Assembly (NCBI GenBank): GCA_016190825.1
Contig: JACPPV010000039.1
Span: 10,215-74,214, forward strand
Reading direction: 5' to 3'
DNA from: Chloroflexota bacterium
GTDB lineage: Bacteria > Chloroflexota > Dehalococcoidia > Dehalococcoidales > UBA2162
Length of the DNA: 64,000 nt
Under the pieces are notes generated by a model. It was not told the DNA's origin. It made no database searches and saw only the letters and a program-made list of their open reading frames with translations. Positions 4,758 through 56,646 of this stretch are shown here, in pieces (positions within the stretch are counted from its first letter, which is position 1; each line of letters starts with the position of its first letter). The translations under genes were made by a program, and so were the position numbers.

Positions 4758-6722
4758 TCACTCCCGTTGAGCCGAAGCCGACTGTCTGCGACCTTCCGGC
4801 CAGAAGGCGAACAACCCTCCCAGTACCAGGACTATTCCCCCGATCCAGAGCCAGCGGACCAGCGGGTTGACAATAATCTTGAAGGCCGTGGTGTCATCTT
4901 CGGCATAATCAACCAGTATTATATACAAGTCCTCCCGGATGGTCGAGCGAATAGCCACTTCAGTTACCGGCTGATCGTAGCTACGGTGAAAGTATTTTTC
5001 CGGGCTCATCCTGCCGATAGGCGTGCCGCCATTGCTGACCGATATTGATGCCGTAACGATGTCCCTGGTCTCGGTTGAGAACCTGTCCAGCCTGTCAAAA
5101 GTAAGGATGTACTGGTTGATGGTCATTGAGTCTCCGGGTTTGAGAGAGACTTCCCTGGTGACATCGAAGAGTGACGAGCCGGCAACCCCGACGGCAATGA
5201 GCACCACGCCAATGTGGACCATATAGCCGCCGTAGCGCGGGCGGTTGGCGCCAAGGAGTCCCACGAACGCTTTGAAGTAATTTTCGTTTCTGGTCCGATG
5301 CCGAGCGCGTGACCCCCGCAGCCACTCCAGCAATATCGTCGCCAGAACGAAAGAAGATATTGCAAAAGTAAGAATGCCTCCCGCCTGCCTCATACCGGCG
5401 ATGAAAAGCGCCAGACTGGTGGCGAGGGCGATTATAGCGGGCCAGAGGAAATTGCGCAGCAGGTTTTTGACCGAGGCTTGCCGCCAACCAATGAGCGTAC
5501 ATATGCCGGCGAGGAGAACTATCGCCAGGAAGATTGGTGTATTGACCTGGTTAAAGAAGGGCGGCCCCACGCTGATCTTAACTCCCCGCACCGCCTCCGA
5601 TATTATCGGGAAAAAATTGCCAACAAAAATGGCAAATGTGGCGCCTACGAGGAGAAGGTTGTTGAGCAGGAAAGTGCTCTCCCGGGATACCAGGGACTCC
5701 ATCTCAGCTTCGCTCCTAAGCTCCCGGCTGCGGTAATAGACCAGGCCGAAGGCACCGAGAAGCGTCACGCCGATGAATGCCAGGAACATGTAGCCCAGAA
5801 GAGGAGATTCGGCGAAGGTATGTACTGAAGACAGGATGCCGCTCCTCGTCAGAAAGGTGCCAAGTATTGACAGGACAAAAGTGAGTATTACCAGTACCAT
5901 GTTCCATATCTTCAGGATTCCACGCCGTCGTTGCATCATCATCGAATGCAGGAAGGCGGTGGCGACAAGCCAGGGCATGAAACTAGCATTTTCCACCGGG
6001 TCCCATGCCCAGTAGCCACCCCATCCAAGCTCAACATATGCCCACCATGCGCCAATCAGGTTGCCGATGCCGAGGAAAAGCCAGGTGATCAGCGTCCATC
6101 GCCTTACCGTGATGACCCACTCGTCACCAAGCCGTCGGGTCAACATGGCCGAGACTGCGAAGGCGAACGGAATGGTGAATCCCACGTAACCGACAAGAAG
6201 GGTAGGTGGATGGAAAAACATCCCCGGATTCTCCAGGAGGGGATTCAGGCCCTTTCCATCGGCTGGGACGAAGGACAGTTTATCGAATACATTGGCAATG
6301 AAGAGCGAAAGAACAAGGAAAAATGTCAGGGTGAACATGACCACCCCGGCGGCGTAGGGTACCAGCTCCCTGCCAATCTCTCTCTTTTGCAGGACGAGCA
6401 CCGCAGCAAAAATTGAAAGAAGCCAGCCCCAGAACAAGAGAGAACCATCATTTCCAGCCCACAGGGCGCTGAGAAGATAGCTCAGGGACATGCTGCGGTC
6501 AGTGTAGGAGGCCACGTATTCAATCTGAAAATCGTGGTTCAGGAGCGCATAAAGCAGCGCCGCTACAGAGACTGTTATCAGGCCGCAGACGGCCAGCGCC
6601 GCATTCCGAGCACTGGCGAGTAAGACCGGGTCCCTTCCCCTCCCCCCGATTATGTGAGCGACTGCCGAATAAAGCGAAACTGTGAGTGCCAGAAACAGCG
6701 CGATGTAACCTATGTCTGCCAT
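4758..6722 (-). CDS. ccmF: Cytochrome c-type biogenesis protein CcmF (heme lyase component)
   Basis: 654-aa polytopic protein with the WWD motif GWGGYWAWDPVENASFMPWL. Lies next to ccmE and ccmH. Confidence 0.9.
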   Translation of the reverse strand: MADIGYIALFLALTVSLYSAVAHIIGGRGRDPVLLASARNAALAVCGLITVSVAALLYALLNHDFQIEYVASYTDRSMSLSYLLSALWAGNDGSLLFWGWLLSIFAAVLVLQKREIGRELVPYAAGVVMFTLTFFLVLSLFIANVFDKLSFVPADGKGLNPLLENPGMFFHPPTLLVGYVGFTIPFAFAVSAMLTRRLGDEWVITVRRWTLITWLFLGIGNLIGAWWAYVELGWGGYWAWDPVENASFMPWLVATAFLHSMMMQRRRGILKIWNMVLVILTFVLSILGTFLTRSGILSSVHTFAESPLLGYMFLAFIGVTLLGAFGLVYYRSRELRSEAEMESLVSRESTFLLNNLLLVGATFAIFVGNFFPIISEAVRGVKISVGPPFFNQVNTPIFLAIVLLAGICTLIGWRQASVKNLLRNFLWPAIIALATSLALFIAGMRQAGGILTFAISSFVLATILLEWLRGSRARHRTRNENYFKAFVGLLGANRPRYGGYMVHIGVVLIAVGVAGSSLFDVTREVSLKPGDSMTINQYILTFDRLDRFSTETRDIVTASISVSNGGTPIGRMSPEKYFHRSYDQPVTEVAIRSTIREDLYIILVDYAEDDTTAFKIIVNPLVRWLWIGGIVLVLGGLFAFWPEGRRQSASAQRE

Positions 6723-7162
6723 GAACTAATATCCTTGGTAGGGGGCGCCTTGCCAACTGGCACATATCTCGTGGGGCATTTCGGCATAAGAGTCTTGGCT
6801 TCGAAGACGCCGATGGAGTTAAGTTTACCGACGATGACAATCGCACCGCCTGGCTTGAATGTATCGGGGACATCCCCTCGGTATACCACCGGCAGACTTG
6901 TGCCCCCTTCGGCGACAGTGAACTTCAGTGTAAAATCGCCAGGCGTTTGTTGAACCGTGCCCGGGACTACTTCGCCGCTGACTTTTACCATCTGGGTCCG
7001 GATGGCCTCATCCGCTTTCTGGAATTCACTGACCGTGTAATCAAATGTCTTCGCGTTCTGGTAGCCGGTGATACCCAGATAACCAATGGCGAGAAAAATT
7101 ATCGCGCCAGCGATGACAAATTTCCTTTTCTTCCTGATCATACTTCCCCGGGAATCTGGCAA
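6710..7162 (-). CDS. ccmE: Heme chaperone CcmE, CxxxY variant
   Basis: N-terminal TM anchor and an OB-fold-like body (VKVSGEVVPGTV...VVYRGDVPDTFKPGGAIVIVGKL). The C-terminal motif LMPKCPTRY sits where classical CcmE has H-x-x-x-Y. The start could instead be M8. Confidence 0.85.
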   Translation of the reverse strand: MPDSRGSMIRKKRKFVIAGAIIFLAIGYLGITGYQNAKTFDYTVSEFQKADEAIRTQMVKVSGEVVPGTVQQTPGDFTLKFTVAEGGTSLPVVYRGDVPDTFKPGGAIVIVGKLNSIGVFEAKTLMPKCPTRYVPVGKAPPTKDISSWQT

Positions 7163-7253
7163 AACTCACCACTCATCCCCGTTCACCTCCCCTCATTAAC
7201 TGGCGTTCTCCACCGGCATCGCGTCCCCACAATAACATCCTGGTTATTTTACC

Positions 7254-7661
7254 CTATGTCTGGGGTTGATGACAACCCCGGCACATGTCGCTGGTGCGGC
7301 CGGCATGGTCTGCGGGCGGTTTTGGCGCTCCGCCAATCCCATCTTTATGGCATAATAAACAATCACTCCTGTCTTCCAGCGAATGCGGTATCCGCGGTAT
7401 TCCCCCCATTGGGATGGGAGTAGGTGTGGGGATGGGGGCAGGAGTAGGGGCCGGGGTAGGCGCAGGTGCAGGAGTAGGAGCAGTAGGCGCAGGTGCAGGA
7501 ATAGGAGCAGCAGGCGCAGGTGCAGGAATAGGAGCAGCAGGCGCAGGTACAGGAATAGGAGCAGCAGGCTCCTCCGGTTTAGCCGCACAGGACACAGCCA
7601 CGAATAGCAGTCCCAGGGCGAAGAGTGATACCAGCAGATACATAATGCGGTTTACTTTCAT
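7254..7661 (-). CDS. Diheme c-type cytochrome lipoprotein with Pro/Ala-rich linker
   Basis: Signal peptide with lipobox (LFVAVSC), a roughly 55-aa PAxP repeat linker, then two CxxCH motifs (CLLCH, CRGCH). Confidence 0.8.
   Translation of the reverse strand: MKVNRIMYLLVSLFALGLLFVAVSCAAKPEEPAAPIPVPAPAAPIPAPAPAAPIPAPAPTAPTPAPAPTPAPTPAPIPTPTPIPMGGIPRIPHSLEDRSDCLLCHKDGIGGAPKPPADHAGRTSDMCRGCHQPQT
7460..7567. repeat. 4 x 27-bp tandem repeat inside the diheme cytochrome gene
   Basis: Units are gcgcaggtgcaggaRtaggagcagYag at 7460-7486, 7487-7513, 7514-7540 and 7541-7567. Each encodes a 9-aa unit of the Pro/Ala-rich linker (for example PAAPIPAPA) on the minus strand. Confidence 0.9.
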
Positions 7662-7941
7662 CGGCCACCTTCATTCAGCAAAATCGTTCCAGCAGATGAA
7701 AACTCCTCAGGTAATTCGGAGGCTCTCTTTTTTGGGGGATAATGATGTGCTGCCTGCCGCGGTTATCGTGTTCCCAGGGGTCAGGAGGAGTGAGATATCA
7801 CTCCTCTCAAAGAACGTGCGAATCCCTTTGTAGAAGTGCTCTATATGTGCTTCCACCAACAGCTGGTCAGTGCTTATGCGCACGTAATCATCCATAGAAC
7901 CATACTCATTTTATGGGAAGTATGGCGGAAATACTATCGGT

Positions 7942-7976
7942 AAAACTACCTGTATTACGCAATAAAAACTACCTGT
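7942..7976. promoter_or_regulatory. Two exact 12-bp direct repeats (aaaactacctgt), starts 23 bp apart
   Basis: Copies at 7942-7953 and 7965-7976. They lie in the intergenic DNA between the 12-heme cytochrome stop (8009) and the diheme cytochrome start (7661). This is a possible transcription-factor site. Confidence 0.25.
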
Positions 7977-8008
7977 TTGCCTCGGTCTTTTCCTGAGATT
8001 AGCAGCGT

Positions 8009-8926
8009 TTATCTGGCGGTGAAACTATGGCAGGTACCGCAGAAAAAACCAACCTGGTGCTCCACCTGCGCCGCATGACAAGAAGTGCAGGTATCCCGCT
8101 GGCTAACCTGCCACTCGTGTGGCTTGTGACAGGTCTGGCAGGAAGACGTGGCATGGGAGCGTTCCGTGTGCGCACCCGTTGCGGTGTGACAGGTCTGGCA
8201 GGCGACATCCGGGAGGACCAATTCATGGGGTTTGTGGCAGGTCGCGCATTCGAACTGCATTGGGGCATCGGCCGGCCAGTTTACCGTCTCAACGGCGCGT
8301 GTTTGGTGACAGTCCAGGCATGCCTTGCGCGTAGGATGGAGCTTTTCCTCCGTTGAGAGGAAATTGTGGCAGGTGGAGCAGTGAAAATCTGCCATCGCCG
8401 GAGTGATGACGCGCTTCTCGATGTGACATACCTGGCAGATCGGCCCCGGTGCCTCAAAACGATGCAGTGTTGTAGAATGACATTTCGTGCACGCCAGGTT
8501 CTGCTCTTCGGTATGCACCTTGTGGCCCGCTGTGGCAGCTACTTGGGGCCATCTTATGTTGGCGCTCTCGTGACATTCCTCGCATGCTTCATCCTTGACG
8601 ACCGCATGTGACTCAACTCTCTGGTACCTGCCGAGAGCAAAACTGACAACCAGCCTGGAGCTCTCGATTACACTTTGCTCGTGGCAGCTATGGCAGGTGA
8701 CGTCTTTGTGTTGGCTTATCGCCCATTTGTCCCAGGCCTGTTCCATCAGGTGGCATGAACGGCAAAAATTAGGATCCTCCTGGGTGTAGTTGTAGAAACG
8801 GAAAAACTGGAAGCCGCTGAAAACAATAATGGCCACAAGGGCGATTGCGGCCGAAAAAAGCACGCCCTTCGGGATTCTACCCAGCCAGCGCCACAGGCGA
8901 CTAGCCTGTGCGGCGAGCCATCTCAT
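8009..8926 (-). CDS. Membrane-anchored multiheme c-type cytochrome (12 CxxCH motifs; NapC/NirT-like N-terminus)
   Basis: One N-terminal TM, then CRSCH, CHSCH, CEECH, CTKCH, CQVCH, CSTCH, CLDCH, CATCH, CQTCH, CQTCH, CTSCH and CGTCH. Confidence 0.85.
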   Translation of the reverse strand: MRWLAAQASRLWRWLGRIPKGVLFSAAIALVAIIVFSGFQFFRFYNYTQEDPNFCRSCHLMEQAWDKWAISQHKDVTCHSCHEQSVIESSRLVVSFALGRYQRVESHAVVKDEACEECHESANIRWPQVAATAGHKVHTEEQNLACTKCHSTTLHRFEAPGPICQVCHIEKRVITPAMADFHCSTCHNFLSTEEKLHPTRKACLDCHQTRAVETVNWPADAPMQFECATCHKPHELVLPDVACQTCHTATGAHTERSHATSSCQTCHKPHEWQVSQRDTCTSCHAAQVEHQVGFFCGTCHSFTAR

Positions 8927-8977
8927 CAGTGTTTCGCCCTTTCAGCGCGCTAACCTATTATAACACACTGGAAGAGG

Positions 8978-9685
8978 TCATCGATCCGGAACCTTTCCGA
9001 ATCCGTGCACAAGAGGGAATCGGTAGAAGCCGAATATCTCGCGGCTGCGCAGGAAACCTGCGAAGATGATAATAACGCCGAACAGTTCAAGGAGGTAAAA
9101 CATTTCCGGTGCTCCCAGCCGCATCCGTGTTCCGCCCAGCGCCGGGAGGATTGCCCCCAGGACAATCAAGATATTGGAAATTACCCGATGCGGCATGAAA
9201 CGGCGCCTCCAGAAAACGAAAGCGCTGAAAAGGGCGCCGCCAACCAGCGCAAGAGTGCCGAAACTATTGAGAAAAGGGGTCAGCAGCCTTACCCCGGATG
9301 GCATCGCTTCCCCGCTGAGGTAGGTAAGTGCATTGAGGTCAAGAGGTGCAGCAAAAACCCTGACCACAGCATAAACGGAAACCAGTCCCAGGACTGCCAT
9401 GAAGATATGAGCAGTGCGGCGGGAGGCCAGCAGGTAGAGCGTTCCCATGCCCAGGTAAGCGGCCACAAGGATTGCGCCAAAAAGGTACCAGAGGCGGTAG
9501 GCGACTGCGTTGATTTCTTGCGCCTCCATCCAGAACTCGGCTGCGGTGGCGACGAAGTACATCAAAAGCCCGAGTGCCCACACAAGCTGGTATGGCTTTC
9601 TGCGAGCAAAAAACTGATCGAGGACGGATAATGCGAAAACAAGACTGACGATGGCAGACAGCAGGGGTATTATTGCCGTGCCCAT
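8978..9685 (-). CDS. Polytopic membrane protein, unknown function
   Basis: 235 aa with about 7 hydrophobic helices. Lies directly upstream of the 12-heme cytochrome on the same strand. Confidence 0.6.
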   Translation of the reverse strand: MGTAIIPLLSAIVSLVFALSVLDQFFARRKPYQLVWALGLLMYFVATAAEFWMEAQEINAVAYRLWYLFGAILVAAYLGMGTLYLLASRRTAHIFMAVLGLVSVYAVVRVFAAPLDLNALTYLSGEAMPSGVRLLTPFLNSFGTLALVGGALFSAFVFWRRRFMPHRVISNILIVLGAILPALGGTRMRLGAPEMFYLLELFGVIIIFAGFLRSREIFGFYRFPLVHGFGKVPDR

Positions 9686-27000: not shown

Positions 27001-28104
27001 CTAGTGGCCCAGGACATGCCAGTGACTGATAGGGCCGGTGAGAAGCATCAGGAGCAGGGTGATGCCTAGGCTCAGAATCACTGCCAGACCCAACATCGGA
27101 GCAAGCTTGGTGTTAACATCCCACGGCCGGCCGGGACCGGGAATGCGAAATACCTGGAACATGACCCGGAAATAGGTGAACCAGATGAGGGCCGCCGTGG
27201 CAACAACCGTCAGCAACCAGGATAATACTCCCCCGGGAAGCCTGAACGCGGAAGTCGGAGCATTGTTGTCCTCGTCAAGCCCCATAGCAGATTTCGGACC
27301 GAAAACCACTTCCTCTCCTGGAGCCGGTAAATCTATCCCGATGTGCGTTGCATAGAAAGGTTTGTCTGCCGCGCCCAGGACAAGAGCCGCCGAGGATTCG
27401 GCCCCCCCGTACCGCGCCACCAGCTGGACTTCGCCATCAAACCGGGGCGTATAATCCAGGAGAGCCACTCCCCTAGCATCAGTGGCTGCCTCACCGATCT
27501 CCATTAAGCCACCTCCGTTAAGAAAGCTCACCCTGGCCAGGAACTTCACCGTCTCCCCGGCTATTGGTTTGCCGTCTTTGTCCTTGATTTCTGCCGAAAT
27601 AGCCAGCAAACGGCCAGCGGACCCTTCATTGGGAGCGGTCAGGACCAGGGAAATGCCTTCAACTGCTGCTGGCGGTGCCGCCGGTTCGACCGGTGCCGCA
27701 GCCAGCGACCAGAGGAAGGTGAGTACTTGCCAGCGCTGTTCCTCTGAAAACGCAGATTTGTAGGGAGGCATTCCCTTGTTCAAGCGTCCTTCGCTCAGTA
27801 CCCAGAAATGATGGTCAGGCTGCTCCTCCAAGTGCTTGCGGAGTTCTGGATTATCACCGAAATGGACGGTGGGCACGGCATCGCCCTTAACACCGTGACA
27901 CCCCACGCACGATTGTGTATAAAGTCGCTTGCCCGCTTCCTGCGCCGCCGCGTCCTCCCAGCGGAAGGGGTTCTTCATTCCGGCATAGGGCGGCGGTACT
28001 TCTTCCTGGGCGATAGCAGCCCGCGGCACCAGGGACAGGAGAAGAACGCCAACCACGGCCGCAAGAGGCAAGATCGCTAGTGTAGCAAACCTCATTTTAT
28101 TCAT
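27001..28104 (-). CDS. Monoheme c-type cytochrome fused to a beta-rich domain and C-terminal TM helices
   Basis: Signal peptide, one CxxCH (CVGCH) with a distal Met region (LNKGMPPY). An Ig-like middle part and two C-terminal hydrophobic helices follow. Confidence 0.75.
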   Translation of the reverse strand: MNKMRFATLAILPLAAVVGVLLLSLVPRAAIAQEEVPPPYAGMKNPFRWEDAAAQEAGKRLYTQSCVGCHGVKGDAVPTVHFGDNPELRKHLEEQPDHHFWVLSEGRLNKGMPPYKSAFSEEQRWQVLTFLWSLAAAPVEPAAPPAAVEGISLVLTAPNEGSAGRLLAISAEIKDKDGKPIAGETVKFLARVSFLNGGGLMEIGEAATDARGVALLDYTPRFDGEVQLVARYGGAESSAALVLGAADKPFYATHIGIDLPAPGEEVVFGPKSAMGLDEDNNAPTSAFRLPGGVLSWLLTVVATAALIWFTYFRVMFQVFRIPGPGRPWDVNTKLAPMLGLAVILSLGITLLLMLLTGPISHWHVLGH

Positions 28105-28155
28105 TCCCTTTCTGACTCACCCTTTCCGTACCTCGCAGTTAACTCCAAAATCCTT

Positions 28156-29562
28156 TCAACTTTGTGTCTCTTCTAACCGCCTCTGGGCAGCGCTACCGCC
28201 CATCCCCTCAGCCTCCTCCAGAGTCCCCGAAGGCCGCTCAACTGCTTCCAGCGTAGCATGTTCGGCGGATTCCATCTCCTCCGCCACTTCCCATACGGAG
28301 ATCAAAGGCATCACCTTGGCGAAGATGGCAAAGATCAGGATGAAGGCGGCGAAGGCGGCAGCAGTGATTGACCACTCAACCCAGGTAGGCCGGTATGCGC
28401 CAAACTCAAACGGCATCAACGGCACCTGCAAGCTGGGGACCAGGATGAGGAACCGCTTGACCCACATGGCAGCGTTGACCAGGACAGCCGCAATCAGCAT
28501 CCGCGGTATGACCGGGCCGCGCCTTACAATGATCAACACCGCCGGTATCACCAGTCCGGCGACCACGAAGAACCAGAACCAGCCAGCGCTCTCTCCCACC
28601 AGCAGCAGTTCAAGGAGGTGCTTGTCCTCGATTTCCAGCTTATAACCCGTGGTCAGGTATTCGCCGACGGTCAGATAAAAGTAGACCAGGAGCGCCACCA
28701 GCATCAGGTAGCCAAGATTGCGGAAGTGCCTGGCCGTAATAAATTCCTCAAGATGGTAAAACTTTCGAAACAGCGCCATAACGATGAGGAGCGAAGCGAT
28801 GCCGGAGAAGATGGCGCCGATGACGAAGTAGACGCCGAAGACAGTACTATTCCAGCCTGGCCGCAGTGTCATGGAGAAGACATATGAGACAACGGTATGG
28901 ACCGAGACGGCAATGGGTATTATGGTTACCGCCATAATGCCGATCGCCTTTTCCAGGCGGTGTCGCTGTTCGGGCGTGTTCCGCCATCCCACCGCCAGCC
29001 AGGTGTATATCTTCCTCTTAATCGCCGATGCGTCCCGCCCAAGCCGGTCCCGCATTAGCGCCAGGTCCGGAATGGCGGGCAGATAAAGGTACACCAGACT
29101 CCCGGTCAGGTAGGAAGTAATCGAGATGATATCCCAGAGAAGTGGCGATTGGAAACGCCCGAAAGCGATCATGTGCCACACCCTCTCAGGACGCCCCATG
29201 TCTATGATCGGCATCAGCGCACCGATCGAGATAGCCACCACGGTAATCATCTCCGCCATCCGGGTGATCGGCGTGCGCCAGCTTGCCTGAGTAACGCGTA
29301 AAATGGCGGAGATGAGCGTCCCGGCATGACTGATGCCGATGAAGAAGACAAAATTCACCATGTATATTCCCCAGAACACCTGGTCACGCATCCCGGTGGT
29401 GACCAGCCCCCAGCGGATCTGCGTCACGTAGGCATAAAAACCCCAGGCGACTACCGCCACCAGGAAGAGAACGAAGAGGTAATAACTAGTGGTGGTCCGG
29501 GCAAGCGGGTCCAAGGCTATGCGCTCCAGACGCCGGTGCCCGGTCTCAATCCTTGGTCTCAT
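28156..29562 (-). CDS. NrfD/PsrC-family polytopic quinone-interacting membrane subunit
   Basis: 468 aa with about 10 TM helices. Follows and overlaps a NrfC-like FeS subunit, which is the typical NrfD arrangement. Confidence 0.8.
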   Translation of the reverse strand: MRPRIETGHRRLERIALDPLARTTTSYYLFVLFLVAVVAWGFYAYVTQIRWGLVTTGMRDQVFWGIYMVNFVFFIGISHAGTLISAILRVTQASWRTPITRMAEMITVVAISIGALMPIIDMGRPERVWHMIAFGRFQSPLLWDIISITSYLTGSLVYLYLPAIPDLALMRDRLGRDASAIKRKIYTWLAVGWRNTPEQRHRLEKAIGIMAVTIIPIAVSVHTVVSYVFSMTLRPGWNSTVFGVYFVIGAIFSGIASLLIVMALFRKFYHLEEFITARHFRNLGYLMLVALLVYFYLTVGEYLTTGYKLEIEDKHLLELLLVGESAGWFWFFVVAGLVIPAVLIIVRRGPVIPRMLIAAVLVNAAMWVKRFLILVPSLQVPLMPFEFGAYRPTWVEWSITAAAFAAFILIFAIFAKVMPLISVWEVAEEMESAEHATLEAVERPSGTLEEAEGMGGSAAQRRLEETQS

Positions 29563-30523
29563 TAGGTCTCCTTTTCCATGTCAAAGGCTCTATCTGGTAA
29601 TTGTATCCATCCCCACCCCAGTTCCACACCGGCCGCTTCAATGGCCGGGGGTCAGAAGCATGGCGATTGAAATTCTGACCATGCCCCGGCAAATACCAGA
29701 CCCGCGGCTGGGTGCCAAGGCCTTCCTTCCAGCGGAAGGCATCATTTTCGTCAAGGAATTTTGATAGCTGCACCACCTCAACCCCGTTGCTGGCGATGTC
29801 TTCATTTCTGTCACCCATATAGAGCGCCTTCATCGGGCAACCGGCGACGCAGTAGGGCAGCTTGCCATCGCGCAAGAAATGGGCGCAGAACATGCACTTT
29901 ATCACCGTTCCTTTCACCGCCGGAACAGGATACAGGGGCGAATAGTGCGCCAGGGCCGCCTCAGGCGGCACCTCCGGAGCCGCCCAGTTAAAGAAGCGGC
30001 GGTGGTACGGGCAGGCTGCCATGCACATACGGCAGCCGATACACCGCTTGTGGTCGATGAGGACCACTCCGTCTTCGTTGTGATAGGTGGCGGCTACGGG
30101 GCACACGTTAACGCAGGGGGCGTTTTCGCACTGGTAGCACGGTACCGGCAGGAAACTCTGCCCGCCGCCGGGCAGGTCCACACCGAATATCTGGATCCAC
30201 TCTTGCCCCTTGGGAGCGAAATGCCCGTCGATACAGGCCTGGGTGCACTGGGGCGGAGCATCTATGGTGACGCAACCGTCACATTTCTTCAGATCTACGA
30301 CCATTGTCCAGGCCCGTACCTTCTTCGGGTCGCCTCCCTCATTCGAATGCGAGGTATCGTGTGAAGGGCCGGGCAGGGGTACATTCGCTGCCTTCACCGG
30401 GTTCAGCACTGGTAGGAAGGGGGAGGACAGCACCGCTGCCAGCCCCGCCCCCGCCGACCACTTCAGGAACTGCCGCCTGCCTAGCTTTTTTCCGTCTTGT
30501 TTATCTGGCACTGCACGTCCCAA
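29546..30523 (-). CDS. Tat-exported 4x[4Fe-4S] ferredoxin-type subunit (NrfC/DmsB/DsrO-like)
   Basis: Twin-arginine leader (GRRQFLKWSAGAGLAAV). Cys clusters CDGCVT..C, CYQCENAPCVNVCP, CIGCRMCMAACP and CMFCAH...CVAGCP. Confidence 0.85.
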   Translation of the reverse strand: MGRAVPDKQDGKKLGRRQFLKWSAGAGLAAVLSSPFLPVLNPVKAANVPLPGPSHDTSHSNEGGDPKKVRAWTMVVDLKKCDGCVTIDAPPQCTQACIDGHFAPKGQEWIQIFGVDLPGGGQSFLPVPCYQCENAPCVNVCPVAATYHNEDGVVLIDHKRCIGCRMCMAACPYHRRFFNWAAPEVPPEAALAHYSPLYPVPAVKGTVIKCMFCAHFLRDGKLPYCVAGCPMKALYMGDRNEDIASNGVEVVQLSKFLDENDAFRWKEGLGTQPRVWYLPGHGQNFNRHASDPRPLKRPVWNWGGDGYNYQIEPLTWKRRPNETKD

Positions 30524-36163: not shown

Positions 36164-37262
36164 CTATTCCTCCTTTCCTGCAATCGACCTGAGGTAGGCG
36201 GTAATGAAATCATCGAGTCCGCCGGCAAGGACAGCCTCAGGGTCACCGGTCTGGAAGTCAGTTCGGTGATCCTTTACCATCTTGTAAGGGTGAAGGACAT
36301 AGCTTCTTATCTGGTTGCCCCAGCCGGCCTCCACGTGTTTGCCCTTCAGTTTTGCTTTCTCCTCAGCTTTTTTCACCAGTTCAGCCTCAAGCAGGCGCGA
36401 TTCAAGAATCCTGAACGCTATCTCCTTATTTTGAAGCTGAGAGCGCTCACTCTGACAGGTCACCACCGTCCCGGTGGGCAGATGAGTCAACCTCACCGCG
36501 GTGCTTGTCTTCTGCATATGCTGACCTCCCGGTCCGCTGGAGCGGAAGACATCAATCTTCACATCCTCCGTCCTTAGCAGGGCGTCAACATCCTTTTCCG
36601 CCTCCGGCAGGACCTCAACAAGGGCAAAGGAGGTGTGCCGGGCATGGTCTGAATCAAACGGGGAAAGGCGCACCAGGCGGTGAACGCCGTGCTCTGACTT
36701 CAGGTAACCGTAGGCGTAATCACCGCGAATCCCGATGGTGGCGCTCTTAATTCCAGCCTCCTCACCGGGGGTGGTTTCTAGAACTTCGGCTTCGTAGTCC
36801 CACCTCTCCGCCCAGCGCAGGTACATCCTCAGCAACATCTCTGCCCAGTCCTGGGATTCGGTACCGCCGGCGCCAGCGTGGATGGAAAGCAGGGCATTAC
36901 GGGAATCATATTCGCCACTGAATGCCAGCTCTAACTCTAGCTCATCGAGCCGTTCGGCGAAATCAGCAATCCGGGGTTCGATCTCCACAATCAGCGATGG
37001 ATCCTCCTCCGCCACTGCCAGGTCTTCGGCCAGCTCAGCTACCTTTTTCTCCTCCCTCCGCCATTTCTCCACTAGCCTGGACAACTGCCCCAGACGTCGC
37101 ATTGTCTTCTGGGCTTCAGCAGTATCTGACCAGAAATCCACCCGGGCCGACCGTTTCTCCAGCCCGGCAATTTCCCTTTCATGGCCGGCGATGTCAAAGA
37201 CGATCCATCATTGTGGAAATTCTCGACTGTAAATTTTGCACTGTTTCCCTCAGCTCAGACAC
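36164..37262 (-). CDS. prfB: Peptide chain release factor 2, requires programmed +1 frameshift
   Basis: ORF1 runs from GTG 37262 (GGAGG Shine-Dalgarno upstream), encodes VSELRETVQNLQSRISTMMDRL and ends at CTT TGA C (37193-37199). The +1 frame continues DIAGHEREIAGLEKRSARVDFW... into the track ORF, which carries the SPF motif (RLSPFDS) and GGQ motif (SSGPGGQHMQ). Confidence 0.9.
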
Positions 37263-50229: not shown

Positions 50230-51564
50230 CTACTTCTTGTGAATAGTTAGGATACTCTCTCGCAGAGGAATTTTGTGGCGTTGGGTATTGTTTGCCCACT
50301 TGTCACCCCTTGCCCGCAAAAATTCGACGTCATAAGCCTCGAATCCCACAGCAACGGCCAAGCGACCTATGATTTCTTCCGTTGGGACATGAACACCATA
50401 AGGCGCGGAGTCCCCAAGTACAAGTATGAACTGGCTTCTGGGTTTTAATGCGGTGTAAGCCTGCTGAAGTACCTTCGTCATATCCTCGAAATAGCCAGCA
50501 ACCATATAATCGTAAGTCTTTTTCCCCGGCTTGACACGCCTCATTTCTGTGAGCTGGCTTATTATGCCTCGAAGTTCTTCATGCACATCGGGAGATACTC
50601 TCCTAATTGTCGGGCACTCTCTTATTTGATTCATGGCACCGACATCAATCTGAGTAGTGGCAGCAATTATCAAGCGGTCACGAACATCACGAGTTATGTC
50701 ATTCCATCGTTTGTAGATTCCCCAGAAATAGGTTTCCAAGCGCGTTCGGTCAGCATAATCATAATTATTCAAATAGGGTGGTGACGTGACAATGAGATTA
50801 ATACTCTCCGGTGGAGCATATTGACTGAACTCGCGAGCATCACCTCGAATAAGAAAATGCTCAGAGGACGGTAAATTCAATGACTGCACATAACGTAGGT
50901 CGGCAAGCATCAGCATGCTTTGCTTGCCAAACTCAATGAACGCATCTCGCACAACTGTCCTCTTCGCGTATTTGGATGGAGCGATGTAAGGCCACCCAGA
51001 ACCAGCAGTCGTCACGATCCGCAACGTAGTCGTCAACGCAAGCTTGAAAAAATCAATATGGGCTGGCTCGATTTCTGCTTCAAAGATTGACTTCCTTAAG
51101 GCATACAGTTTTCGCAGGTTGTCCTCGCTAAAGCACTTGTGAATGAGATCAGGCCAAGAGTCGTCGTATTCTGTATCCTCCATTGAGCGCGCCGTGTCGA
51201 TAATTGGCTGAGTATCTCTAAAGAGGACATCCACATCGCACTCAAATCTCATCTTTGTCGATGCAACCCAGTGCACAAAAGAATGAGCCTCAATGCCCAA
51301 AGAATTGATACCCTGCATTTTCGCCGCTATCGAGGTTGTTCCTGTACCCAGAAATGGATCGGCTACCCAACTTCCCGGTGTAAGGCCATTTTCGGCTATT
51401 TTTGCTTCCACAAAGCGGTAGGAGTATCCTGCTGGATATGTGAACCATCGATGAATGGGCGCCTTCAGGCTATCGCGGAATGAACCGTAATTCTTGACTT
51501 CAACGTTAGTGGTCAAACATGGCCCTCCCTCATATTTTGGAGTCTCAAGTCTAAACTGAACCAT
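50230..51564 (-). CDS. DNA methyltransferase (N4-C/N6-A amino-MTase, motif I before motif IV)
   Basis: AdoMet motif I VADPFLGTGTTSIAA near the N-terminus. Catalytic motif IV VTSPPYLNNYDY lies about 190 aa later. Confidence 0.85.
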   Translation of the reverse strand: MVQFRLETPKYEGGPCLTTNVEVKNYGSFRDSLKAPIHRWFTYPAGYSYRFVEAKIAENGLTPGSWVADPFLGTGTTSIAAKMQGINSLGIEAHSFVHWVASTKMRFECDVDVLFRDTQPIIDTARSMEDTEYDDSWPDLIHKCFSEDNLRKLYALRKSIFEAEIEPAHIDFFKLALTTTLRIVTTAGSGWPYIAPSKYAKRTVVRDAFIEFGKQSMLMLADLRYVQSLNLPSSEHFLIRGDAREFSQYAPPESINLIVTSPPYLNNYDYADRTRLETYFWGIYKRWNDITRDVRDRLIIAATTQIDVGAMNQIRECPTIRRVSPDVHEELRGIISQLTEMRRVKPGKKTYDYMVAGYFEDMTKVLQQAYTALKPRSQFILVLGDSAPYGVHVPTEEIIGRLAVAVGFEAYDVEFLRARGDKWANNTQRHKIPLRESILTIHKK

Positions 51565-56079: not shown

Positions 56080-56123
56080 TTGCAATAAAATAAAGATTCG
56101 AGTACTATACATAATAGTACTCG
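56080..56123 (+). promoter_or_regulatory. Promoter candidate overlapped by a perfect 10-bp inverted repeat (operator-like)
   Basis: TTGCAA (56080-56085), a 17-nt spacer, then TACTAT (56103-56108). The palindrome cgagtactat-acata-atagtactcg spans 56099-56123 and ends 28 nt before the ATG at 56152. Confidence 0.4.
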
Positions 56124-56151
56124 GCATATCGCCAAACAACGGGGACACAAA

Positions 56152-56646
56152 ATGAAAAGAAACATTCAGCTAGTCTTGCTAACCGCCGGTCTCTTGGCGG
56201 CAACGCTGATCACTGCCTGTTCTGCGCAGAATACAGGCGGCAGCAGTCAATCAGATTCCCATGCTTACAGAGAAGTGAGCGCTACCATCTTCGCACCGAA
56301 CGGCTGAGAGTGCTGTACGGCGTGGTCACGCTACATGACACAACAGGGATTTCGCCCTAAGCTCACTTATGTCACTAACCTGGCGGCCATAAGACAGAAA
56401 AATGGAGTCCCCGACGAGTATGCCTCCTGTCACACGGCAATTATTGACGGATACGTGGTCGAAGGTCACGTGCCAATTGAGGCCGTAAGCAAACTGCTGA
56501 CCGAGCGGCCGGACATAGATGGAATCGCGCTGCCCGGAATGGTCGAAGGTGCGCCGGGAATGGATGGCGTTCTAACGAAGCCAATCACGGTTTACGCGCT
56601 CTCTAACGGCACGGCAACGGAGTTCATGACCTTCAATCCCCGGTGA
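56152..56646 (+). CDS. DUF411/CopG-family metal-binding lipoprotein with in-frame TGA (candidate selenocysteine; pseudogene is the alternative)
   Basis: My translation from 56152 is MKRNIQLVLLTAGLLAATLITAC... (lipobox) ...ATIFAPNG-TGA-ECCTAWSRYMTQQGF. It continues in frame into the track ORF 56335..56646 (SCHTAIIDGYVVEGHVPIEAV..LPGMVEGAPGM). TGA is at 56305-56307. Confidence 0.6.
56314..56335 (+). promoter_or_regulatory. SECIS-like hairpin downstream of the in-frame TGA
   Basis: tgta(cg)gcgt-GGTC-acgc-taca forms two 4-bp helices with a 2-nt bulge. The GGUC apical loop starts 16 nt after UGA. Confidence 0.45.

Follow-up and report, generated by a model that had tools for sequence, protein, structure and literature searches.

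Does the TGA at 56305-56307 of a 64,000-nt stretch of Chloroflexota DNA (Dehalococcoidia; contig JACPPV010000039.1, positions 10,215 to 74,214; hereafter the window) end a short open reading frame (ORF), or is it read as selenocysteine (Sec) within a longer copper protein of the DUF411/CopG family? An earlier note on this DNA had favoured the second answer and proposed a Sec-containing CopG instead of the 103-residue ORF that a gene caller reports. This proposal is supported by the position of the TGA in a conserved Cys column, by two orthologous loci (L001 and L002), by two metagenome-assembled genomes (MAGs) from Dehalococcoidia and by at least 120 metagenome contigs. We consider it highly probable that the locus is a genuine UGA-recoded CopG-family gene, with Sec as the most probable residue, and the doubt that we retain is due to the inserted residue and the Sec machinery. 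Coordinates below are those of the window and, unless stated, of its forward strand.

The predicted full-length Sec-DUF411/CopG gene occupies 56152-56646. Its ATG (56152-56154) opens a lipoprotein signal peptide, MKRNIQLVLLTAGLLAATLITAC, with the lipobox I-T-A-C, and reading through the TGA at 56305-56307 gives 164 codons, UGA-52 included, with no other interruption until the stop TGA at 56644-56646. The product would read ..IFAPNG-*-ECCTAWSRYMTQQGF..SCHTAIIDGYVVEGHVP..LPGMVEGAPGMDG.., the asterisk marking the TGA. This TGA is codon 52 and lies in the same frame as the ORF called from ATG 56335 (56335-56646, 103 residues), with ATG 56152 situated 61 codons upstream of that start. The earlier note had described precisely this arrangement, a lipoprotein-type ORF ending at the TGA and continuing in frame into the called ORF, and its coordinates and motifs were all correct. 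The signal peptide is delimited as MKRNIQLVLLTAGLLAATLITA|C (56152-56220), with the lipobox cysteine as Cys23, and the equivalent positions read LLAAC in L001 and LLVAC in L002. A Shine-Dalgarno sequence, GGGGA (56141-56145), stands 6 nt ahead of ATG 56152; similarly, GGGGGAG and GGAG precede the upstream ATG of L001 and L002, respectively.

The assignment to DUF411/CopG and the motif blocks given for it in the earlier note were borne out by profile and structure searches. The Pfam model PF04214 (DUF411) matched residues 90-137 of the read-through product (E = 1.5e-23, 82.7 bits against a cut-off of 27), and the Pseudomonas aeruginosa CopG structure (6WIS/6WJE) matched residues 49-138 over its own residues 10-98 (E = 1.6e-19), in an alignment that pairs query residue 52 with the first Cys of the CGCC in CopG. 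According to two reviews, CopG is a periplasmic thioredoxin-like protein in which CxCC and two Met hold a tetranuclear Cu cluster; it is a proposed Cu(I)/Cu(II) oxidoreductase and matters for copper resistance under anaerobic conditions. Provided that the TGA is translated, the C-x-C-C-x-x-W motif is present in the window protein as U(TGA)-E-C-C-T-A-W, in which the predicted Sec (codon 52, 56305-56307) takes the place of the first Cys and the resulting U-E-C-C has a UxxC embedded in it. Cys54 and Cys55 (56311-56316) lie upstream of the gene-caller start, yet they occupy invariant columns of the family. The conserved DUF411 block C93-H94-T95 ... E104-G105-H106-V107-P108 follows at 56428-56475, and the block P128-G-M130-V-E-G-A-P-G-M137 at 56533-56562 contains two invariant methionines, which the reviews give as copper ligands in CopG. 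All of C54, C55, C93, H94, T95, E104-P108, M130 and M137 fall in invariant alignment columns. The lipoprotein signal with its ITAC lipobox agrees with the export that characterises the CopG family, and by homology with CopG the window protein is predicted to adopt a thioredoxin-like fold.

Compared with CopG of P. aeruginosa and CutG of Rhodobacter capsulatus, the window protein shares C/U-x-C-C-x-x-W, S-C-H-T, E-G-H-V-P and P-G-M-x-x-G-x-P-G-M and is likewise an exported protein. Unlike the genes of these two, the window gene has UGA (predicted Sec) where the motif has its first Cys. CopG and CutG are soluble periplasmic proteins of proteobacteria, whereas the window protein is a Chloroflexota lipoprotein, and it has PGMVEGAPGM where the usual form is PGMPxGSPGM.

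The coincidence of the TGA with the first Cys of CxCC, on which the proposal of the earlier note turned, held up well. This column is Cys in 22/22 aligned full-length Cys-type homologues and is followed by an invariant CC and a near-invariant W; a further 28 Cys-type loci from GTDB genomes have TGC or TGT at the codon aligned with TGA-52. A homologue search in a 5.8-billion-protein database returned P0002 (70% identity) and P0005 (71%) as the two closest relatives, both annotated as truncated ORFs, and their DNA (L001 and L002) comes from other sequencing runs. The note had asked whether close relatives carry TGC/TGT or TGA here: the codon is TGA in both L001 and L002, where a lipoprotein signal lies in frame upstream and E/D-C-C-x-A-W follows downstream. 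The frame decay that would have spoken for a broken gene was looked for in these orthologues and was not found, the upstream signal ORF being open and xCC..W being kept after the TGA. TGA also occupies this codon in two loci from Dehalococcoidia MAGs, L011 and L022, which have ~38-40% identity to the window protein. A scan of genome contigs of GTDB representatives gave a best relative at 53% identity.

L022 additionally contains tandem DUF411 paralogues (L022:6136-7049) with TGA in one and TGT in the other at the first-Cys codon, a natural Sec/Cys pair in one operon.

The same configuration was then found well beyond the close relatives with a DNA pattern that is blind to the hairpin (TGA-G.. 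TGY TGY, 102-120 nt, TGY CAY, 27 nt, GAR GGN CAY GT). This pattern, representing TGA-x-C-C...CH...EGHV, matched the window once, where chance predicts 0 occurrences, and at least 120 JGI metagenome contigs, and four Burkholderiales-type MAGs at NCBI share TGA at the first-Cys codon, with the TGA junction confirmed. From the matches listed we drew a Sec-type set of metagenome loci, genome loci and window copies, to which all counts out of 124, 121 or 117 given here refer. It comprises 124 unique proteins, which fall into 50 clusters at 70% identity, share a median pairwise identity of ~42% and have the consensus ..VTVYKSPT-U-GCC..W... None of the 124 has a further in-frame stop or a frameshift, and 121 have an open frame ahead of the TGA that encodes a hydrophobic signal-like segment. 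These signal regions include a lipobox in 45 proteins and a twin-arginine motif in 40.

The twin-arginine-like motif, present in about one third of the set (40/124, loci L035-L154), would imply export of a folded, possibly metal-loaded selenoprotein.

A single third-position change from C or T to A turns TGC or TGT into TGA, so that a nonsense mutation, or a sequencing or assembly error, in a Cys-type CopG gene would look the same at this one codon. The window sequence, TGA included, was assembled independently from runs SRR12113390 and SRR12113401, besides the window contig, so that the TGA is not an assembly error, one of the refuting conditions that the earlier note had named. The TGA recurs in orthologues at 70% identity and in at least 120 homologous genes, a coincidence with the Cys column far beyond chance, and no relative among the matches listed contains other stops or frameshifts. 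Because the TGA and an open upstream frame are kept across diverged genes, neither nonsense mutation, assembly error nor pseudogene formation can give this pattern, and we regard these explanations as effectively refuted.

The alignments bear equally on the possibility that the TGA is a true stop, which would leave a 51-residue lipopeptide and a separate (or no) cytoplasmic DUF411 fragment of 103 residues starting at ATG 56335. All gene callers report the locus in this way, the database entries for this clade and for the Burkholderiales-type clade being 92-106 residues long and some accompanied by a separate 34-36-residue ORF, and no stop codon is commoner in the window than TGA. However, the nine codons that separate the TGA from ATG 56335 (ECCTAWSRY) hold the invariant CC..W and are conserved in the orthologues, even though they would be untranslated. 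No purine-rich ribosome-binding site precedes ATG 56335, and in other clades the first downstream start is found elsewhere. The fragment would also have neither the signal for export nor the motif for metal binding that an extracytoplasmic metal protein carries, and it would not account for the upstream frame, open and with its signal peptide in 121 of these 124 diverged genes. Termination at codon 52 is thus very unlikely.

Nor is UGA a sense codon in this organism, as it would be under genetic code 4 or 25, for which nothing speaks beyond the in-frame TGA itself. TGA ends 20 of the 44 window genes, the Sec-DUF411 gene among them. The window also encodes release factor 2 (RF2) on the reverse strand: prfB (36164-37262) has the SPF motif and a programmed +1 frameshift site, CTT TGA C (37199-37193), an autoregulatory frameshift that depends on UGA being a stop there. 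A scan of the 64-kb window recovered no other convincing TGA-split gene, and no other window gene has an in-frame TGA flanked by coding sequence. Because TGA stops are ordinary and an RF2 with its frameshift site is encoded, a reassigned code is excluded (we consider it refuted), and TGA-52 needs gene-specific recoding.

As a side observation, the ORF lists include only the downstream part of prfB (36164-37141).

The expected route of recoding to Sec relies on a stem-loop in the mRNA, and the earlier note had pointed to an fdhF-like GGUC hairpin just after the UGA. The candidate selenocysteine insertion sequence (SECIS) is the hairpin UGUA(CG)GCGU-GGUC-ACGCUACA at 56314-56335, composed of a lower stem UGU/ACA, a 2-nt bulge and an upper stem GGCGU/ACGCU (56319-56323 with 56328-56332), with the GGUC loop at 56324-56327 starting 16 nt after the UGA. 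Its core, GCGTGGTCACGCTAC (15 nt, 56320-56334), is the sole run of at least 8 nt in the gene that is identical in the window, L001 and L002; by comparison, the three genes agree at only 17 of 61 conserved degenerate codons, and the three-way identity at third positions is 0.34. The note had described the GGUC loop of Escherichia coli fdhF as lying about 18 nt after the UGA, which the E. coli K-12 sequence confirmed (UGA, 18 nt, GGUC). Like the fdhF SECIS, the window hairpin has a GGUC tetraloop, a short upper stem and an irregular lower stem and is located in the coding region just past the UGA, at a spacing of 16 instead of 18 nt. Unlike fdhF, which has UGCA/UGCA and a single bulged U, it has the stem GGCGU/ACGCU and a 2-nt bulge and is less stable, with SelB binding as a prediction.

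We compared the hairpin with the published bacterial SECIS (bSECIS) model, which specifies 3-9 nt for the apical loop, 4-16 bp for the upper stem, a G within the first two nucleotides of the loop, a distance of 16-37 nt from the UGA and a minimum free energy (MFE) of -7.5 kcal/mol or lower (PMC13188914). The 4-nt loop, 5-bp upper stem, loop G and 16-nt spacing of the window hairpin are all within these limits. Its stability is borderline, at -5.4 kcal/mol for the hairpin alone and -9.0 kcal/mol for nt +4 to +40 (56308-56344). For this gene the hairpin proposal is therefore supported in part: the geometry fits and the core is conserved, the fold is thermodynamically weak, and the hairpin stands as a candidate SECIS.

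Most Sec-DUF411 genes have another, stronger hairpin, typically GUGGGUG-GNU-CACCUGC and reaching 12 bp in the Burkholderiales-type genes. The loop of the best hairpin starts 20-21 nt after the UGA in 66/121 Sec genes, and its position is scattered in 27 Cys-type genes. Against shuffles of synonymous codons within each gene, the 45 nt after the UGA had a mean z of -0.82 in the Sec genes, of which 25% ranked in the best 5%; the corresponding share was 8% in an internal control region and 4% among Cys-type genes. All bSECIS criteria were met by 86/117 Sec genes versus 112/234 codon-shuffled sequences (48%, p = 4.5e-6) and 11/27 Cys-type genes (41%, p = 0.0025). One fixed helix laid over 121 sequences pairs in 63% of cells, as against 32-44% in slid registers, and its pair 28:36 changes from GC to AU in 20 sequences via a synonymous His-codon change. 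Part of this pairing follows from the amino acids W-[VIM]-x-H-L, because Cys-type CopG shares that sequence. The enrichment of structure after the UGA across the Sec-type family is real but moderate.

Recoding could also insert a residue other than Sec, either Cys delivered by a SelB-dependent tRNA(Sec)-like Cys tRNA, or Trp or Cys through near-cognate read-through, and so produce an ordinary CxCC or WxCC CopG. The residue is not readable from the sequence. tRNA(Sec)-like tRNAs charged with Cys are described in some bacteria, and unusual Cys-encoding systems (SepRS/SepCysS) occur in Dehalococcoidia. Moreover, Cys is the ancestral state and change between the two comes easily, with at least nine switches between Sec-type and Cys-type DUF411 on a rough neighbour-joining tree with a Cys root; the window clade sits among Cys-type neighbours, which suggests that it acquired Sec independently. 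Yet where a conserved in-frame UGA with a hairpin after it takes the place of a catalytic or metal-binding Cys in a Sec-using lineage, the well-studied cases are all Sec, and this Cys/Sec-pair logic is the basis of a standard SECIS-independent prediction method (PMC13188914). TGC or TGT would be a simpler way to encode Cys, and the retention of TGA across at least 50 diverged clusters implies selection for something that Cys does not give. Near-cognate read-through, for its part, is inefficient, and RF2 is present. Insertion of an amino acid other than Sec is accordingly improbable, if less so than termination, and Sec is the residue that we predict at UGA-52.

The lineage of the window is compatible with Sec decoding. 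Its ATP synthase beta subunit is 86-91% identical to proteins of Dehalococcoidales/Chloroflexota MAGs, and L011 and L022 likewise belong to Dehalococcoidia. Dehalococcoidia MAGs with 46-49 selenoproteins, among the largest bacterial selenoproteomes recorded, are documented, as are selC, selA, selB and selD in Dehalogenimonas. For this genome, Sec competence is a prediction drawn from its class.

Several observations weigh against a Sec-containing copper protein at this locus. The evidence for Sec-CopG is all at the level of nucleic acid and deduced sequence. Neither tRNA-Sec (ARAGORN) nor selA, selB or selD was found within the 64-kb window (Pfam, 40 window genes), and ~1.2 Mb of related loci yielded no tRNA-Sec (ARAGORN) and no selD (tblastn with an approximate E. 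coli SelD probe). This is what would be expected of single-copy genes if they lie elsewhere in the genome. The post-UGA region of the window is no more stable than shuffled sequences (z = +0.8 for dinucleotide and z = +1.5 for codon shuffling), so that support for the hairpin comes from nucleotide conservation and not from thermodynamics. With -6.5 and -5.1 kcal/mol the two orthologues miss the -7.5 criterion of the bSECIS model, and the conserved core accounts for only about -4 to -5 kcal/mol; the bSECIS-type comparison suggested by the earlier note thus agreed in loop, stem, G and spacing, with borderline stability. No Rfam SECIS family was detected, whether in the whole window at the gathering threshold or in 56280-56400 at E up to 10; as bacterial SECIS elements differ from gene to gene, this null result tells nothing either way. 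RNAalifold found no family-wide consensus in 121 aligned post-UGA regions, because sub-clades use different registers. Finally, the window gene lies outside any copper operon, its neighbours being a CBS-domain gene and a major facilitator superfamily (MFS) transporter, and across the metagenome Sec-type set neighbourhoods are heterogeneous and copper linkage is sporadic.

Linkage to copper genes is frequent in DUF411/CopG but does not define the family, and it is absent around the window gene; no partner is conserved across the whole Sec-type set either, as judged from Pfam annotation of 150 neighbouring ORFs. The window gene stands alone, whereas a sister Sec-type clade is part of a CopG-like copper-resistance operon with multicopper oxidase, CusF and resistance-nodulation-division (RND) efflux. 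In this Burkholderiales-type clade, represented by four NCBI MAGs, the gene order is OEP (outer-membrane factor), multicopper oxidase, cupredoxin, DUF411 and CusF, with a CsoR-family repressor and RND efflux genes nearby. At its loci (L156-L161; GCA_964203275.1, GCA_945862135.1, GCA_006365115.1 and GCA_964533495.1) the Sec-type DUF411 is annotated as two ORFs of 34-36 and 104-106 aa. Two further observations concern this clade. A 254-residue CusF-DUF411 fusion (P0245), 66% identical to the Burkholderiales-type query, lends further support to a copper-handling role, and in L156 MtrB/PioB and multihaem cytochromes are encoded close to the DUF411 operon.

Upstream of the window gene, a promoter-like arrangement of TTGCAA (56080-56085), 17 nt and TACTAT (56103-56108) can be read from the sequence (56080-56108). 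A simple sigma-70 scan did not recover TTGCAA-N17-TACTAT, and we regard it as tentative; the block GGTATTGCAATAAA...TACTAT is kept upstream of L001. A perfect 10-bp inverted repeat, CGAGTACTAT-ACATA-ATAGTACTCG (56099-56123, assigned to neither strand), lies over the -10 element and occurs once in the window, with 0 occurrences expected by chance. Its palindromic core, TATACATAATA, recurs upstream of the two orthologues (L001:190-200 and L002:483-493). The repeat is probably the operator of a repressor that controls the Sec-DUF411 gene. We had also considered the palindrome as a minus-strand terminator and rejected this, since no gene on the minus strand terminates at this site and the orthologues keep the motif in their upstream DNA.

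Elsewhere in the window, 4758-9685 and 27001-30523 encode cytochrome c maturation (CcmF), multihaem cytochromes c and an NrfD / 4Fe-4S / cytochrome c module, respiratory equipment that is unusual next to the classical organohalide-respiring Dehalococcoidia. On the reverse strand, a 444-residue ORF (50230-51564) adjoins a class II ribonucleotide reductase; its first 95 residues match only the C-terminal part of an N6/N4 DNA methylase model, and the remainder is unannotated.

Is a Sec-containing DUF411 protein new? In the literature we found no link between DUF411 and selenoproteins or between CopG and selenocysteine, in a search that did not extend to supplementary tables or database contents, so that a prior listing is possible. 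The main text of a 2026 inventory of 119 prokaryotic selenoprotein families contains no PF04214, DUF411, CopG or UxCC entry (PMC13188914). Sec-DUF411 is also not mentioned in the Global Ocean Sampling (GOS) survey, in deep-Sep or in the text of BSepDB, and NCBIfam has no model for it that would let the Prokaryotic Genome Annotation Pipeline (PGAP) call the Sec codon. When a Sec-type query was compared with the protein database, the close relatives were all truncated ORFs, and the full-length matches were at most 67% identical, that is, Cys-type. We conclude that the family, and possibly its chemistry, is new, and that the decoding mechanism is standard.

Two groups of selenoproteins invite comparison. 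Like the thioredoxin-fold UxxC selenoproteins (Sec-thioredoxin, glutaredoxin, DsbA-like and thiol:disulfide interchange proteins; PMC13188914), the predicted protein has Sec at the N-terminal Cys of a CxxC-type motif, many Cys-type homologues, and a UGA followed by a hairpin in the coding region. Unlike them, U-x-C-C has an extra Cys, and its Cys-type relative binds a copper cluster and does not serve disulfide cycling only. It also resembles the predicted Sec-containing metal-handling proteins, namely cation-transporting ATPase E1-E2 (UxxC), the SO_0444 Cu/Zn efflux transporter (UxC), and CopZ-family and MerP-like proteins (PMC13188914), in placing Sec at a metal-binding Cys. These, however, belong to unrelated folds and families and have no multinuclear copper cluster.

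Taken at its most probable, the locus would work as follows. The ribosome would read UGA-52 as selenocysteine and not as a stop, with SelB and Sec-tRNA(Sec) recruited by the downstream stem-loop (5-bp upper stem, GGUC loop 16 nt after the UGA). After export, the product would sit on the membrane's outer face, attached by its lipid anchor, with U-E-C-C in place of C-x-C-C; since there is a CxxC within C1-x-C3-C4, replacing its first Cys by Sec yields UxxC, as is typical of thioredoxin-fold selenoproteins. By analogy to the homologous CopG of P. aeruginosa, U/C/C together with M130 and M137 may bind a multinuclear copper site. The copper chemistry of the window protein can be proposed in the same way: its probable task is to buffer Cu(I)/Cu(II), or to convert one into the other, outside the cytoplasm, which would confer copper protection under anoxic conditions. 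A selenolate would offer a softer, more nucleophilic ligand or redox centre with a lower pKa than a thiolate.

These considerations allow a broader and more tentative proposal, to which we give somewhat less than even chances. Sec-CopG may be a widespread family that arose by repeated Cys-to-Sec switches, in which a selenolate could be a bridging ligand of the multinuclear copper site, making it the first natural copper-selenolate cluster protein. With the same reservation, its lineages would include Dehalococcoidia, Burkholderiales-type proteobacteria and many others, and it would link selenium availability to copper resistance in anoxic environments.

Whatever the fate of this broader proposal, Sec-type genes are systematically mis-annotated: every database entry examined gives a 92-106-residue 'hypothetical' or 'DUF411 domain-containing' fragment. 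Sec-DUF411 is abundant, in at least 120 metagenome contigs, and yet is missing from the inventory of 119 families. Since the replaced residue belongs to the CxCC of a copper cluster, the family may offer a biological case of Cu-Se coordination or a Cu(I)/Cu(II) oxidoreductase that works with a selenol, and Sec-type and Cys-type DUF411 form a natural Sec/Cys pair that is readily testable. For anaerobes such as Dehalococcoidia, a Sec-containing CopG would tie the use of selenium to copper tolerance.

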